Notes under the pieces: model-generated
What the model was told of the DNA's origin: nothing
What the model saw: the letters and a program-made list of their open reading frames with translations, nothing else
The model's database searches: none
Assembly: GCF_003334355.1 (NCBI RefSeq)
Contig: NZ_QOWP01000005.1
Strand: one strand, 5' to 3'
DNA length: 64,000 bases
Source of the DNA: Escherichia coli
Lineage (GTDB): Bacteria > Pseudomonadota > Gammaproteobacteria > Enterobacterales > Enterobacteriaceae
Program-made: the position numbers and the translations under genes
Shown: piece by piece, positions 7,624 through 26,607 of the stretch
Position numbering within the stretch: the stretch's first letter is position 1
How the letters are laid out: every line of letters begins with the position of its first letter

Positions 7624-7911
7624 TTATTTGTGGAAAATTACCTGACCGCCAGACACCACCTCATCGACAATGCCAATCACGCACAGATCGACCGGTGACG
7701 TTTCGCTTTTATGCGCCTGGCGGGCGGAACTGCCACTCACCAGTAACACCCACTCCCCGGTCCCCGCGCCAATATTGTCGATGGCGACGGCGCATTGCCC
7801 GTCAGGATTACCTTGTGAATCAATCATTTCCACCATCAGCAATTTGTCATGCGCCAGTCCGTGATGGCGTACGGTACAAACAATTTGTCCAGTGACGACT
7901 GCCAGTTTCAT
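7624..7911 (-). CDS. eutN: microcompartment vertex protein EutN (EutN/CcmL family)
   Basis: 95-aa ORF MKLAVVTGQIVCTVRHHG; recognised as EutN. Confidence 0.93.
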   Translation of the reverse strand: MKLAVVTGQIVCTVRHHGLAHDKLLMVEMIDSQGNPDGQCAVAIDNIGAGTGEWVLLVSGSSARQAHKSETSPVDLCVIGIVDEVVSGGQVIFHK

Positions 7912-8017
7912 ACCCGCCTCCGTGGCGTATTTCAGGTAAAAGCTCCCCCTACCCTCCGCAGAAGGTAAAATGAAAAAGGAGAGAGCGTGACGCCCGAATC
8001 GACGTCACACAGGGTGA

Positions 8018-8311
8018 TTACAGGTTGCTGCTATCGCCTTTCAGGCCGATCGGGAAGACTTCTTCCAGGTCGCCGTGCGGACGCGGGATAACGTGTACAG
8101 ATACCAGCTCGCCGATACGCTGTGCCGCTGCGGCACCTGCATCGATCGCGGCTTTACAGGCTGCAACATCACCACGAACCATGGCAGTACACAGGCCGCC
8201 GCCAATCTGCTTAACACCAACCAGCTTGACGCGCGCAGCTTTCACCATCGCGTCAGAAGCCTCAATCAGTGCAACCAGGCCCCGGGTTTCGATCATTCCT
8301 AATGCTTCCAT
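8018..8311 (-). CDS. eutM: microcompartment shell protein EutM (BMC-H domain)
   Basis: ORF track 8018..8353 trimmed to [18 protein letters not shown] (97 aa); canonical BMC shell protein. Confidence 0.93.
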
Positions 8312-8349
8312 TGTGCTTTCCTCTTTATCAGGGTCCAGAACGGGACCGT

Positions 8350-9366
8350 TCATTCAACCAGTGTTTGTAAACTGCTTTCGCGGTTCACTTCTGTCTGACG
8401 CGGCACAGCTGCCACCAGCGCCAGCTCGATAATTTCCTGCACGCTACAACCACGAGAGAGATCGTGCATCGGCGCGGCAAGTCCTTGTATCAGTGGCCCG
8501 ACGGCACGATATCCGCCGAGTCGTTGTGCGATTTTGTAACCAATATTTCCGGCTTCCAGCGACGGAAAAACCATCACATTGGCCTTGCCCTGTAGCGGGC
8601 TGGCAGGCGCTTTTTGCGCCGCCACTTCCGGCACGAAGGCGGCGTCAAACTGTAACTCGCCATCCACCACCAGCTTTGGTGCGCGCTCACGGACGATTTC
8701 TGTCGCCTGCTGGACGTTAGCAACACAGGGGTGACGGGCGCTACCATTGCTGGAAAACGACAGCATCGCCACGCGCGGCTCTTCTCCGGTGATGGCGCGC
8801 CAGGTTTCGGCACTGGCAAGCGCGATATCCGCCAGCTGCGCCGCCGTCGGCTGTGGCACCACGCTGCAATCGGCAAAGCCCAACGCCGGGCCGCTGTACT
8901 GTGGCAACATCAGGAAAATGGAAGAGAGCGTTTTACAGCCTGGCTGCAAGCCGATAATGCGTAATCCGGCACGCAGCACATTTGCCGTGGAAGAGAGGTT
9001 GCCCGCGATACAGACATCCGCTTTACCGGCGCTGACCATTGCTGCGGCGAACATCAGAGGGTCGGTAAGTTTTTCCAGCGCATCCGGCGGCGTTTTTTCG
9101 CCCGCGCGGGCCAGCCAGCGATGAGCAAATTCTTCCCGCATTGCGAGGTTGCCATGCGGATCAATCACCTGTAGCCCGTCCATCGCCACGCCGTGACTGA
9201 GCGCAAACTGACGAAGTTCAAACGGATTGGCGACCAGAATGGGCGTTGCCAGACCTTGTTGATGTAAATATTGCGCGGCTTTCAGCACACGTTGGTCTAA
9301 CGCATCCGGAAAAACCACTCTGGCGGGCGCTCGCAACGCCAGTTCACGACAACGTTCAATAATCAT
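8350..9366 (-). CDS. eutD: phosphotransacetylase EutD
   Basis: 338-aa ORF; Pta-like sequence; overlaps eutM region by 4 nt in the track. Confidence 0.93.
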
Positions 9367-10165
9367 TGCGTTCCCCCAGTCGTTGTTGGATCTGCTTCAC
9401 CGTTAGCGGCTGCTTCGTTACGCTCAGGATCATCATCACGTAGACCGTGCTGGAAAGGCGGTTCAGCGCCTGCAAAATGTCCGGGCGTAATACTTCAAAG
9501 CTGCGGGTGATAAAGACCTGCGCCGCTACGGTTTCGGTTTCCCGCACTTTGGTGCGTAGCAGATTGAGCAACGCAGCATCGCGCCCGTGGCTGGCTTCCG
9601 GCACCAGATGATCGTGGTCGAGATAGCGCAGCGGCTGATGAGAAAGCCGATGCAGATCTTCGTCAGAAAGCCCGACAATCGCCTGGCAGCCCAGCGGTTC
9701 CCCCAGCGCATCGGCGCGCATAATGTTGCCAAGACGCGAACGGATATCCGCCAGCCACGGCTGCCACGGTTCCGCCAGTTCAATTTGCAGCCACACTACC
9801 AGCGCAATGGTGCTGTCGAGAACCGCGCGAAAACCCAGACGCGGATCGCTTTTGGCGACCATTTTTTCCGCCGACAGGTGAGTCAGCGTATCCGGCTTTT
9901 TTGCCACCGGCTGGCGACACAGTTCGCAGCACGCCTGCGGATGTTCATCGCTACTGGTCAGCCCATGAACGGGCTGCGGCTGCTGCTGTTCATCGTCAAC
10001 AAACAGGCGGCCCTGCTCGTCAATAAACTTGATGCGCAGATGGCGGCTTTCCAGCAACTCCCGGGCAGAGGGCGTCAGGCGACTGTCCGCAGGGAGATGG
10101 ATCTCTGCGCCTTCGCTGAGCGTATGGTTCGCTCTTAGCCATGCTTCGGTGATGAAATCTTTCAT
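9356..10165 (-). CDS. eutT: EutT corrinoid adenosyltransferase
   Basis: [22 protein letters not shown] recognised as EutT; exact start not verified. Confidence 0.88.
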
Positions 10166-10863: not shown

Positions 10864-11317
10864 CTGCTTCCTCCTGTTTGGTGAGAGATGCCAGATAATC
10901 CACCAGTTGCTGCACGCTTTGCGGGTCGTGGCTGTTTAGCACGAAAATCGGCTCTTCGAAACCCGTCTCAAGCAATAACTTTCGCGTTGCGGCGACGTCA
11001 GCATCTGGCATGTCCGTTTTACTGATGACGGCGATTTGCCGTTTGCTGACGCCAATATCCAGCAACCCGGCAGGCAACCGACTTTCCGGGTCATTTGCGC
11101 CATGGACATAGATCAGCATGTCTACATCCTGTAGCGTGGTAATTAAGGCGTGATACCAGCGGGGATGGTTAAAATATTCACCCGGCGTATCAATATCGCC
11201 CTTATCATTAAATTCCACGGCCTGTGTTTTTCTGGCGAGGGTATAATTCCCCTGCAACGCATTAAATAACGTTGTTTTTCCTGCCCCGACGCTACCCACA
11301 AACGCAATTCGTTTCAT
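10838..11317 (-). CDS. eutP: ethanolamine utilisation GTPase/acetate-kinase-like protein EutP
   Basis: 159-aa ORF with Walker A GSVGAGKTT; 26-nt overlap with eutQ. Confidence 0.92.
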   Translation of the reverse strand: MKRIAFVGSVGAGKTTLFNALQGNYTLARKTQAVEFNDKGDIDTPGEYFNHPRWYHALITTLQDVDMLIYVHGANDPESRLPAGLLDIGVSKRQIAVISKTDMPDADVAATRKLLLETGFEEPIFVLNSHDPQSVQQLVDYLASLTKQEEAGEKTHHSE

Positions 11318-11329
11318 GAATGCCTCGTA

Positions 11330-11665
11330 TTAACTTTTGGTCATTTCACAAAGCGTATAATTTAATAAGCGACCTAAACCGCTGACGGTTTGTGATAACG
11401 CTTCTTCTACTGCGCCCACCGAGCCATAAATCACCAATGCACCGCTGAATCGGTCGAGAAAACCGATATGCACATCAGCGGCTTTCAGCGCTAAATCACC
11501 GGCGATCATCGCCGTTTCGCCGGGAGTTAGCGTCATAATGCCAATTGCGCCCGCATCCGGAACGCCGATTTTCTTCGCCAGTTCCTCACCGGGATGCGCG
11601 ATGAGATGCGCCAGTGTGACCTGTTTGCCGGGCACAAATTCCTGAATGATGCGTTCTTTATCCAT
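11330..11665 (-). CDS. eutS: microcompartment shell protein EutS (permuted BMC domain)
   Basis: ORF track 11330..11737 trimmed to [15 protein letters not shown] (111 aa); first gene of the eut operon. Confidence 0.9.
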
Positions 11666-11957
11666 GAGTCGCCGCCTGTGAAAAACTTTCGTGTATCGTG
11701 ACAATTTTTCGTCAGAGTAAATAACAAAATTCGGCAAGCGCGTTTAAAAGGTGAGGTAGATCACTAAGAATGGAGAGATATTCGCTGTGGTGCATAAACT
11801 TTCATATGCAACGCATGAATATAAATAAAATAATATCGAGATATTATATAGACTGCTTTTTTTTATTATTCGCAAACTCAGTAATAAGCTTTACTAATAT
11901 ATTGCAGCTAAACTGCTTACCCTGAATATTCAGGGTAAGCGTGAGAGTTAAAAAAAA
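11666..11957 (-). promoter_or_regulatory. eut operon upstream regulatory region (main eut promoter expected here), very AT-rich
   Basis: 292-bp non-coding AT-rich tract immediately upstream of eutS on the minus strand; promoter position inferred, not mapped. Confidence 0.5.
11916..11939. other. perfect 24-bp palindrome CTTACCCTGAATATTCAGGGTAAG just downstream of the maeB stop (possible terminator-like stem-loop)
   Basis: Read directly; sequence is its own reverse complement; T-run lies between stop codon and stem on the maeB strand, so not a classical intrinsic terminator. Confidence 0.5.
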
Positions 11958-14237
11958 TTACAGCGGTTGGGTTTGCGCTTCTACCACGGCCAGCGCCACC
12001 ATGTTGACGATACGACGCACCGATGCGATCGGCGTTAACACGTGAACCGGTTTCGCCACACCCATCAGCACCGGGCCGACAGTCACACCTTCCGAGCTGG
12101 AAACACGCAGTAAGTTGTAACTAATGCGGGCAGCTTCCATGTTCGGCATCACCAGAATATTGGCGGAACCTTTCAAAGAGCTGTCCGGCATACGGTCGTT
12201 GCGAATCGCTTCCACCAGCGCTGCATCGCCGTGCATTTCACCATCAATCATCAGTTCTGGTGCACGTTCCCTGACCAGTTCCAGCGCCTGACGCATTTTG
12301 CTCGACGACGGGCAGTCAGAAGAACCAAAGTTGGAGTGCGACAACAAAGCAACGCGCGGCTCAATACCAAAACGACGGACAGTTTCTGCCGCCATCAAGG
12401 TGATCTCCGCCAGCTCTTCTGCATCCGGTTCATCATTAACATATGTATCGGCAATAAAGGTGTTACCACTCGGCAGCAGCAGCGCGTTCATGGCACCTGC
12501 GGTGTGAACGCCATCGCGATAACCAAAGACATTTTTCACCACGCTAAAATGTTCATGATAATCACCCACCGTACCGCAAATCATTGCATCGGCTTCCCCA
12601 CGCTGAACCATGATCGCGCCGATCACTGTCGGGTTACTGATCAGCGCCCGCTGCGCCTGTTCCTGAGTGACGCCGCGACGCTTCATGATCTGGAAGTATT
12701 CGGTCCAGTACTCTTTAAAGCGCGGATCGGATTCGTTATTGACGATCTCAAAATCAACGCCCGCTTTGATCTGCAAGCCCAGTTTCTGAATGCGCATTTC
12801 GATCACGTTCGGACGACCGATAAGGATCGGTTTCGCCAGTCCCAGCGTTACCAGTTCCTGAGTGGCATGCAGAACGCGCGCCTCTTCCCCTTCCGGCAGA
12901 ACAACGCGCTTCGGCGCTTTGCGAGCCTGGGAGAAAATCGGCTTCATAAACAGGTTGGTTTTGTAAACGAACTCAGTCAGCTTGTCGATGTAGACGTCGA
13001 AATCAGCAATCGGACGAGTCGCCACGCCCGACTCCATCGCGGCTTTAGCGACCGCAGGAGCGATCTTAACGATCAAGCGCGGATCAAAAGGTTTTGGAAT
13101 GATGTATTCCGGACCAAAGCTCAGATCCTGATCGCCATACGCTGAAGCCACCACTTCGCTCTGTTCCGCATGGGCGAGTTCTGCAATCGCACGTACCGCC
13201 GCCAGTTTCATCTCTTCGTTGATGGCGGTTGCGCCAACGTCCAGCGCGCCACGGAAGATGAACGGGAAGCACAGGACGTTGTTCACCTGGTTCGGATAGT
13301 CAGAACGACCGGTGCAAATGATGGCATCCGGACGCACTTCTTTCGCCAGCGGCGGCAGAATTTCCGGTTCCGGGTTCGCCAGCGCCAGGATCATTGGCGC
13401 ACGAGCCATTTTCTTCACCATTTCCTGGGTCAGCACTTTCGGGCCGGAACAGCCCAGGAAAATATCCGCGCCTTCAATCACATCATCGAGGGTACGTTTG
13501 CCGTCATCCACCACCGCATATGCGGCTTTGGTTTCCGCCATGTTTGGCTCACGGCCCTGATAGATAACGCCTTTTGAATCGCAAACCACGATGTTATGTT
13601 TTTGCAGACCCAGCGCTACCAGCAGGTTCATACAGGCGATTGCTGCGGCACCCGCGCCGGAAACCACCATCCGCACGTCGGAGATGTTTTTCTCCACCAC
13701 GCGCAAGCCGTTGAGGATGGCGGCAGTGCTGATAATTGCCGTGCCGTGCTGATCGTCGTGGAATACCGGAATATTCATCCGCTCGCGCAGTTTCTGTTCA
13801 ATATAGAAACATTCTGGCGCTTTAATGTCTTCGAGGTTGATGCCGCCGAAGGTTGGTTCGAGCGCGGCGACAACTTCAATAAATTTGTCCGGGTCGAGTT
13901 CGTCAACTTCAATGTCAAATACATCAATCCCGGCGAATTTCTTAAACAGAACGCCCTTGCCTTCCATCACCGGTTTGCCTGCCAGCGCGCCAATGTTGCC
14001 TAACCCCAGCACCGCCGTACCGTTAGAGATCACCGCCACCAGGTTACCGCGGGCGGTATATTTGTAGGCTTTTAACGGGTCTTTTTCGATTTCAAGACAA
14101 GGTGCGGCAACGCCTGGTGAGTAGGCCAGCGCCAGATCGCGCTGTGTTGCCAGAGGCTTGGTTGGAGAAACCTGGATTTTCCCTGGAACTGGAAATTCAT
14201 GGAAATCAAGTGCACTTTGTTTTAACTGGTCATCCAT
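11958..14237 (-). CDS. maeB: NADP-dependent malic enzyme MaeB (malic enzyme + Pta-like C-terminal domain)
   Basis: 759-aa ORF; recognised sequence. Confidence 0.95.
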
Positions 14238-26568: not shown

Positions 26569-26576
26569 GCAATAAA

Positions 26577-26607
26577 AAAGGCGACATGCTAATGTGTCGC
26601 CTTTTTC
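26577..26607. terminator. bidirectional rho-independent terminator (A-run, GGCGACA stem, T-run) shared by acrD and ypfM
   Basis: AAAAAGGCGACATGCTAATGTGTCGCCTTTTT read directly. Confidence 0.8.

Follow-up and report, generated by a model that had tools for sequence, protein, structure and literature searches.

The stretch of DNA analysed here (the window, 64 kb from Escherichia coli) carries maeB, which encodes the NADP-dependent malic enzyme, and eutS on the same strand, separated by a spacer that is identical to that of E. coli K-12 MG1655. We verified that MG1655 coordinates are obtained by adding 2564140 to the window position. As a whole, the window belongs to a close relative of MG1655 and is not MG1655 itself. 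Two SNPs relative to MG1655 lie in maeB (13089 and 14049), and the register with MG1655 is lost around 7860-9370, suggesting an indel or a divergent segment in the eut genes. The features of the locus are collected in Table 1.

Table 1. Features of the eutS-maeB spacer and the adjoining genes, in window coordinates
Feature	Position	Strand	Basis
eutS	11330-11665	-	ORF, matching the MG1655 annotation
Conserved eut promoter and leader block	11666-11775	-	Cross-genus alignment upstream of eutS, including loci without an adjacent maeB
Two 15-nt direct repeats, 20 bp apart	11678-11692, 11698-11712	-	Just upstream of the eutS ribosome-binding site
Strongly conserved TTGCCGAATTTTGTTATTTAC	11717-11737	-	Almost invariant upstream of eutS
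Highest Rho score, class 'orphan'	11720 (MG1655 2575860)	-	Bicyclomycin experiment, Adams et al. 2021
C-rich, G-poor read-through RNA, candidate rut	11721-11810	-	C/G 2.0-2.5, 9-11 YC dimers per 60 nt
CRP-like AGTGATCTACCTCAC	11751-11765	-	Motif, precedes TTGCCGAATTTTGTTATTTAC
Escherichia-specific AT-rich segment between hairpin and eut promoter block	11776-11904	.	73% AT over 11776-11914
Degenerate tail AGUUUAGCUG at the usual U-tract place	11905-11914	-	3 U in first 8 nt, tail score 0.94
Cluster of mapped primary maeB 3′ termini	11906-11915	-	Published 3′-end maps; dominant 11908 and 11906
maeB 3′ UTR, stop codon to mapped 3′ terminus, about 52-53 nt	11906-11957	-	TRS Supplementary Data 4: length 53, terminus 2576046
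26-bp palindrome, probable terminal RNA stem-loop of maeB mRNA	11915-11940	-	Inverted-repeat and folding analysis; same fold in TRS tables
maeB CDS	11958-14237	-	759-aa ORF; b2463, MG1655 2576098-2578377

The spacer is 65.8% AT overall, with a non-uniform composition, and resolves into the maeB 3′ UTR, an Escherichia-specific AT-rich filler where Rho would act, and the conserved eut promoter. A sequence-only reading of this DNA had described it as an AT-rich promoter region, which holds in part: a promoter is present, in a conserved eutS-proximal block of ~110 bp that is 58% AT, whereas the 73% AT stretch is a separate, Escherichia-specific segment. Conservation across genera is confined to the block. 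The AT-rich stretch (139 nt over 11776-11914) is indel-rich, is partly deleted in one genome labelled E. coli (L005) and is absent from Citrobacter, K. oxytoca-group Klebsiella, Pseudocitrobacter and Yokenella, in which the entire maeB-eutS spacer is only ~160 nt long.

Within the promoter block, TTGCCGAATTTTGTTATTTAC hardly varies ahead of eutS in genera ranging from Escherichia to Morganella, Buttiauxella and Pluralibacter. Judging from sequence, EutR and CRP probably control the main eut promoter through TTGCCGAATTTTGTTATTTAC and the CRP-like AGTGATCTACCTCAC. The literature that we consulted, including a paper on the Salmonella eutS promoter, provided no transcription start or EutR/CRP site coordinates usable here, and a consensus promoter scan of the spacer returned no promoters. 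A sigma-S holoenzyme SELEX peak has been reported within the spacer, at low resolution. On the eutS strand, the direct repeats near the ribosome-binding site of this gene read ACGAAAGTTTTTCAC and ACGAAAAATTGTCAC. Of the two copies, the upstream one is shared across genera, and the downstream one is conserved mainly in Escherichia. An Rfam scan of 11300-12300 at a permissive threshold gave chance-level matches only, with E values of at least 2.3 and scores far under the gathering scores. We judged a 51-aa plus-strand ORF (11770-11925), which lies within the indel-rich AT segment and ends inside the palindrome, to be spurious.

The palindrome and the mapped maeB 3′ ends

The sequence-only reading had drawn attention to a perfect 24-bp palindrome beside the maeB stop codon. 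Pattern search of the window located this sequence, CTTACCCTGAATATTCAGGGTAAG, at 11916-11939, exactly as described, and revealed that the dyad is even longer. One extra pair on each side of the core extends it to a perfect 26-bp palindrome, GCTTACCCTGAATATTCAGGGTAAGC, with 13-nt arms that are 100% complementary and not separated by a spacer, 17 nt downstream of the maeB stop on the strand of maeB and eutS. This is the longest perfect inverted repeat in the window, in which the longest zero-loop palindrome arm did not exceed 11 nt in 30 mononucleotide shuffles, versus the 13 observed. The palindrome is single-copy: even with 3 mismatches allowed, the pattern has 1 site in the window and 0 matches in any shuffle of it. 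The second-strongest inverted repeat of the window, AAAAAGGCGACATGCTAATGTGTCGCCTTTTT at 26575-26606, has a 12-bp stem between A5 and T5 and looks like a bidirectional intrinsic terminator.

As RNA, the palindrome folds into an 11-12 bp stem with a 4-nt loop at about -18 to -20 kcal/mol, equally for both strands in this strain, and with a folding z of about -4.2 to -4.9 against shuffles. Exactly this hairpin is printed for the maeB terminus in Supplementary Data 3 of the TRS study, with -19.5 kcal/mol and 3 U in its tail (PMC10687069). On the maeB strand, the T-run (T8, 11949-11956) precedes the stem, as had been noted, and the stem is followed on its 3′ side by AGTTTAGCTGC. The tail, AGUUUAGCU, contains no U-tract: its first 8 nt (AGUUUAGC) hold 3 U and open, next to the stem, with A and G. 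A consensus terminator scan, which required at least 5 T in 8, returned 0 sites in the spacer. We therefore agree with the earlier description of the element as something other than a textbook intrinsic terminator. It does have a stable, G+C-containing stem-loop shortly past the stop codon, as such terminators do; the U-rich tract of ~7-8 nt that should stand directly 3′ of the stem is missing.

Other roles for these letters were considered and rejected. Long-range pairing of the post-stop T8 with the A8 at 11857-11865 is not credible as a functional interaction, since the mapped 3′ end is reached before the A8, and since the T8 is particular to K-12-like sequence, with other strains carrying TTCTTTTTT or TTCATTCTT. 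Similarly, we discarded a role on the plus strand, where the tail reads CGUGAGAGUUAAAAAAAA; the sole terminus at these coordinates in the tables consulted is on the minus strand.

Published maps place a 'Primary' maeB 3′ terminus at MG1655 2576046-2576054/55 on the minus strand, with 2576048 or 2576046 as the dominant position (Bar et al. 2023, TRS, PMC10687069). Converted to the window, the interval 2576046-2576055 covers +1 to +9 from the last paired base of the stem, and the dominant ends fall at +7 (G) and +9 (U). The terminus appears in 3 datasets, namely the Dar & Sorek 2018 Term-seq sheet, the Barsheshet RNAtag-seq sheet and the authors' own RNAtag-seq in LB (PMC10687069). Its detection is not universal across datasets: no 3′ end at 25757xx-25761xx is included in the Term-seq list curated by Adams et al. 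2021 for three conditions (PMC7815308), and the TERMITe supplements have no maeB entry. Coverage of maeB is modest.

Mapping of maeB 3′ ends had been proposed as one check on the palindrome, and the published Term-seq and RNAtag-seq ends lie 1-9 nt past the stem and not elsewhere. The idea of a processing or stability element was thus essentially right, in that the hairpin behaves as a 3′-end or stability element of maeB. We note that ends ~7-9 nt after a stem are also what an intrinsic terminator gives, so that their position does not discriminate. Exonuclease stalling is expected to leave ends similar to those of intrinsic termination.

Hairpin and tail among Escherichia and related genera

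A 38-nt query comprising the hairpin and 6-nt flanks was found in 5410 of 5426 complete E. coli genomes, in 5395 of them with at most 1 mismatch, usually the flanking A/G of position 11914. Each genome has one such locus; since the query is mostly palindromic, the median of 2 places per genome is most simply explained by a single site being scored on each strand. In an alignment of 8 diverse E. coli strains, none of the 27 hairpin columns varies, while 5 of 21 vary in the 5′ flank and 6 of 21 in the tail (11/42 for the immediate flanks together). The corresponding counts are 16/120 for the AT-rich segment and 1/110 for the promoter block. The combination of an invariant hairpin with a variable tail indicates constraint on the stem-loop but not on the tail, and suits a barrier or structural role better than a classical terminator.

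Tail sequences within E. coli are GGTTTAG in most sampled strains, AGTTTAG in K-12-like strains, and GGTCCAG and GGTTAAG in one strain each. Most E. coli carry a slightly better version of the element than the window, a 12-bp stem with the tail GUUUAGCU, and some have GUUUUC. In strain GDSC2239PM (L065, NZ_CP136018.1, 748-1555), an IS1A is inserted 13 nt past the hairpin, equivalent to window ~11902; beyond it comes a truncated gene for an aldehyde dehydrogenase, which its annotation suggests is eutE. Here eutS and the following eut genes appear deleted, and the maeB hairpin and a short tail are retained.

To place the hairpin in a wider context, we scanned for EutS in one genome per species. 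The scan yielded 63 loci, of which ~30 have maeB upstream of eutS on the same strand, most of them immediately adjacent. In most syntenic loci of Citrobacter, Klebsiella, Pseudocitrobacter and Yokenella, a canonical terminator stands 14-20 nt past the maeB stop, typically as a GC-rich GGCGCGGG-loop-CCCGCGCC followed by TTTTTATTT, with 7/8 U; in Salmonella diarizonae, a canonical terminator lies slightly further out from the stop. Tail scores of the Citrobacter and K. oxytoca-group terminators are 4.6-5.3, versus 0.94 here, while the stems of the canonical orthologous terminators, at -15.5 to -20.8 kcal/mol, are as stable as the one in the window (-18 to -20).

Escherichia carries a different hairpin, GCTTACCC...GGGTAAGC, at the same offset (+17). 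Its tail is GATTTTTAT in E. whittamii and a related Escherichia sp., GGTTTTAT in another Escherichia clade (L004) and GGTTTTGC in a divergent strain labelled E. coli (L073), and the sister Escherichia lineages have tails with 4-5 U. The simplest reading of these lineage tails, as sequences, is that a maeB terminator has had its U-tract decay in E. coli.

The non-coli lineages lack perfect symmetry in the DNA and keep the stem through U·G or G·U pairing on the maeB-sense strand only. The loop measures 3, 5 or 6 nt in these other lineages, versus 4 in E. coli. The predicted stabilities differ between strands, with -16.3 (sense) and -7.5 kcal/mol (antisense) in L004, -19.6 and -15.6 in L002/L003, and -18.6 and -14.1 in L073. 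All one-sided stem changes in an 8-sequence alignment (5/5) give G·U on the maeB-sense strand. None of the 12 pairs in this alignment shows a double compensatory substitution, so that covariation is weak and directional only, and the structural argument rests on the direction of the wobbles, the energies and the mapped ends. Sense-strand wobbles, variable loop length and 4-5 U tails together argue for an RNA hairpin rather than a protein operator. A single G-to-A change, converting U·G into U-A, accounts for the perfect dyad of E. coli.

Rho and the formation of the maeB 3′ end

In the bicyclomycin experiment of Adams et al. 2021, the Rho score at MG1655 2575860 is 5.5 (p 1.5e-13), computed over 800-nt windows and hence of coarse resolution (PMC7815308). 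This peak lies about 190 nt beyond the hairpin. Reads upstream and downstream number 161 and 21 without bicyclomycin (ratio 0.13), and 195 and 140 with it (ratio 0.72), all counted in 800-nt windows (PMC7815308 Supplementary file 2). Downstream read-through thus increases when Rho is inhibited, and termination is not independent of Rho as far as these coarse data go. A ratio of 0.72 with bicyclomycin leaves little room for efficient Rho-independent release at the hairpin. The 800-nt windows are coarse, and bicyclomycin could also unmask new initiation, either at the eut promoter or in the AT-rich spacer, so that the data stop short of a base-by-base proof of read-through past the hairpin.

The composition of the read-through RNA changes along its length. 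Over the first ~100 nt past the hairpin, which are AT-rich with G at or above C, C/G is only 0.5-0.9; the AT-rich segment is the path of polymerases that have passed the hairpin before the Rho-score peak. A C-rich, G-poor stretch from 11810 to 11721, delimited by sliding-window composition, directly precedes the peak, and its base content makes it a candidate region for the loading of Rho (rut). Adams et al. 2021 reported that the C:G ratio is raised near Rho-associated ends (PMC7815308).

Similar arrangements have been described genome-wide. Rho-dependent E. coli transcripts end just past stable stem-loops without U-tracts, and such ends arise through trimming by PNPase and RNase II after diffuse termination further downstream (Dar & Sorek 2018, PMC6061677). 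The maeB terminus shares the stable stem-loop lacking a U-rich tail, the precise steady-state 3′ end immediately behind it and the bicyclomycin-sensitive read-through further on (0.13 to 0.72). The excess of C over G in the downstream RNA is a partial resemblance, in that the C-rich stretch lies ~100-190 nt past the hairpin, beyond the AT-rich segment and not immediately after the stem. The terminus differs in its residual UUU tail, with which some direct termination is possible.

We therefore consider it probable that the palindrome is the 3′-terminal stem-loop of the maeB mRNA, a former intrinsic terminator whose U-tail has decayed and which now caps a Rho-dependent transcript. RNA polymerase on the minus strand would make the hairpin 17 nt past the maeB stop and, because the tail is only AGUUUAGCU, few polymerases would be released there by the hairpin itself. 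The majority would continue into the AT-rich spacer. Rho may then load on the C-rich, G-poor stretch and, as the coarse bicyclomycin data suggest, halt transcription at about 11720 or beyond it, ahead of eut or within its start. From the class of ends described by Dar & Sorek, 3′-to-5′ exonucleases are predicted to trim the tail back to the hairpin, which would leave the sharp steady-state ends mapped at +1 to +9. On the evolutionary side, the U-tract would have decayed in E. coli while the stem was kept and tightened (U·G to U-A).

With this division of labour, the hairpin would fix the maeB 3′ end and protect the message, and Rho would insulate the eut operon from maeB transcription. The sequence-only reading had raised the possibility that the palindrome insulates maeB from the eut promoter region. 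Insulation of eut from maeB transcription is real, but the bicyclomycin-sensitive read-through, with its peak at 11720, points to Rho and not to the hairpin alone. In proteomics, MaeB is not co-induced with the eut operon, which is consistent with effective insulation.

The maeB terminus and its fold already stand in published genome-wide tables, and the element is an ordinary feature of a described class, not a novel one. The maeB transcription unit gains a defined 3′ end, which matters little beyond annotation, and the palindrome is most unlikely to be a eut regulatory site. Beyond the locus itself, Dar & Sorek 2018 proposed that terminator class could switch by a change in U content and that mixed cases may be transition states (PMC6061677). 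The maeB terminus would be a clean natural example of the change from an intrinsic terminator to a Rho-dependent 3′ end, with the U lost and the stem kept, and intermediate states of this loss are visible among living Escherichia lineages.

The main split is between Rho plus trimming, which we favour, and residual intrinsic termination. Under the latter, the hairpin and its short UUU would be a weak but working terminator that produces the +7 to +9 ends by direct release, with Rho mopping up the escapees. In fact, the ends lie at the canonical 7-9 nt from the stem, equally as direct termination would give, and the stem is no less stable than those of the canonical orthologues; the tails of most E. 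coli and of the sister lineages are somewhat better than that of the window, and mixed or transitional cases are discussed by Dar & Sorek (PMC6061677). However, 3/8 U with A and G nearest to the stem is a tail that the consensus scan rejects, downstream coverage still reaches 72% of upstream with bicyclomycin, and the hairpin is intact in the strain with the GGUCCAG tail, so that the hairpin is conserved where the tail is not. Compared with the canonical terminators of Citrobacter, the K. oxytoca group, Pseudocitrobacter and Yokenella, the maeB element has a similar offset (14-20 nt there), a similar stem stability and mapped ends 7-9 nt after the stem; it differs in its unrelated stem (GCTTACCC... 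versus GGCGCGGG...), in 3/8 versus 7/8 U and in its Rho sensitivity. We regard a working intrinsic terminator at this site as rather unlikely.

Other readings of the palindrome

A more speculative extension of the favoured Rho-dependent reading treats the hairpin and the Rho zone as a conditional insulator, in which weakened Rho activity, or altered folding or occupancy of the hairpin, would let maeB transcription read through into eutS and beyond. A 3′-end-binding protein such as ProQ, or a dimeric DNA-binding protein using the dyad, could be the occupant. If this were true, expression of malic enzyme and of ethanolamine utilisation would be coupled independently of EutR, and the loss of the U-tract in E. 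coli would make that coupling tunable. We consider this a long shot.

Comparison with relatives does not support the suggestion that a dimeric DNA-binding protein, EutR or some other regulator, uses the palindrome as an operator to act on eut or maeB. It would account for the perfect dyad symmetry, which includes the loop positions and which palindromic transcription-factor operators share, for the near invariance in E. coli and for a site upstream of the eut operon. In orthologous loci, however, neither half-sites nor spacing are conserved at the DNA level: the G·U wobbles of the sister lineages are A·C mismatches on the opposite strand, so that symmetry is kept only as RNA pairing, and a centre of 3 to 6 nt alters the distance between the half-sites. 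The sequence is lacking in other genera that share the eut promoter block and whose eutS product is ~90-95% identical; an unrelated GC-rich terminator takes its place there. A distance of 150-250 bp separates the palindrome from the conserved promoter block, versus 17 nt for the maeB stop. The palindrome is present once per genome and occurs in no paper in a full-text literature search (0 papers). EutR is an AraC-type regulator, and AraC-type regulators usually bind direct repeats. An operator here would need to be E. coli-specific, single-copy, located at a gene 3′ end and coincident with mapped RNA ends, and we hold it to be extremely unlikely.

Least credible, to the point of being negligible, is a chance or neutral palindrome, or one left behind, without function, by a mobile or repeated palindromic element (REP, for example). 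Insertions or deletions in this spacer are indeed suggested by the ~160-nt spacers of other genera, and IS1 and long palindromic insertions adjoin equivalent hairpins in other strains and genera, but only ~0.001 such palindromes are expected per window (~64000/4^13 for 13-nt arms, a simple expectation), this one belongs to no repeat family, it stays invariant in E. coli between variable flanks, its position coincides with mapped RNA ends, and a hairpin at the same offset from the maeB stop is kept across genera. With REP/BIME elements the palindrome shares an intergenic hairpin at an mRNA 3′ end, able in their case, and by analogy perhaps at maeB, to block exonucleases; it differs from these many-copy elements in being single-copy, since neither the window nor E. 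coli genomes contain further members of such a family. REP-type sequence is GC-rich, and the maeB palindrome contains none of it.

Several relatives depart from the usual arrangement between maeB and eutS. In Citrobacter amalonaticus (L015) and Citrobacter sp. MGH106 (L025), an insertion of ~125-210 nt lies inside the U-tract of an otherwise canonical maeB terminator and splits the stem from most of the T-run. The insertion holds a long imperfect palindrome and looks ERIC/IRU-like. In Klebsiella pneumoniae ATCC 13883 (L028), within the first ~100 nt past the maeB stop, a first GC-rich hairpin, CGCGCGGATCCGTTTCCGCGCG, has the tail CAATATCA and no U-tract, and is followed by a second inverted repeat, CAGGCAGGC...GCCTGCCTTTTTAATT, with a T-run; by eye, this looks like another loss of a U-tract, with a tandem back-up terminator. 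Salmonella diarizonae (L007) and Intestinirhabdus alba (L030) have 2.1-2.5 kb of extra DNA between maeB and eutS, and the 3 kb upstream in S. arizonae (L006) yielded no maeB. These last arrangements indicate that the adjacency of maeB and eutS is not universal, although the eut promoter block is.
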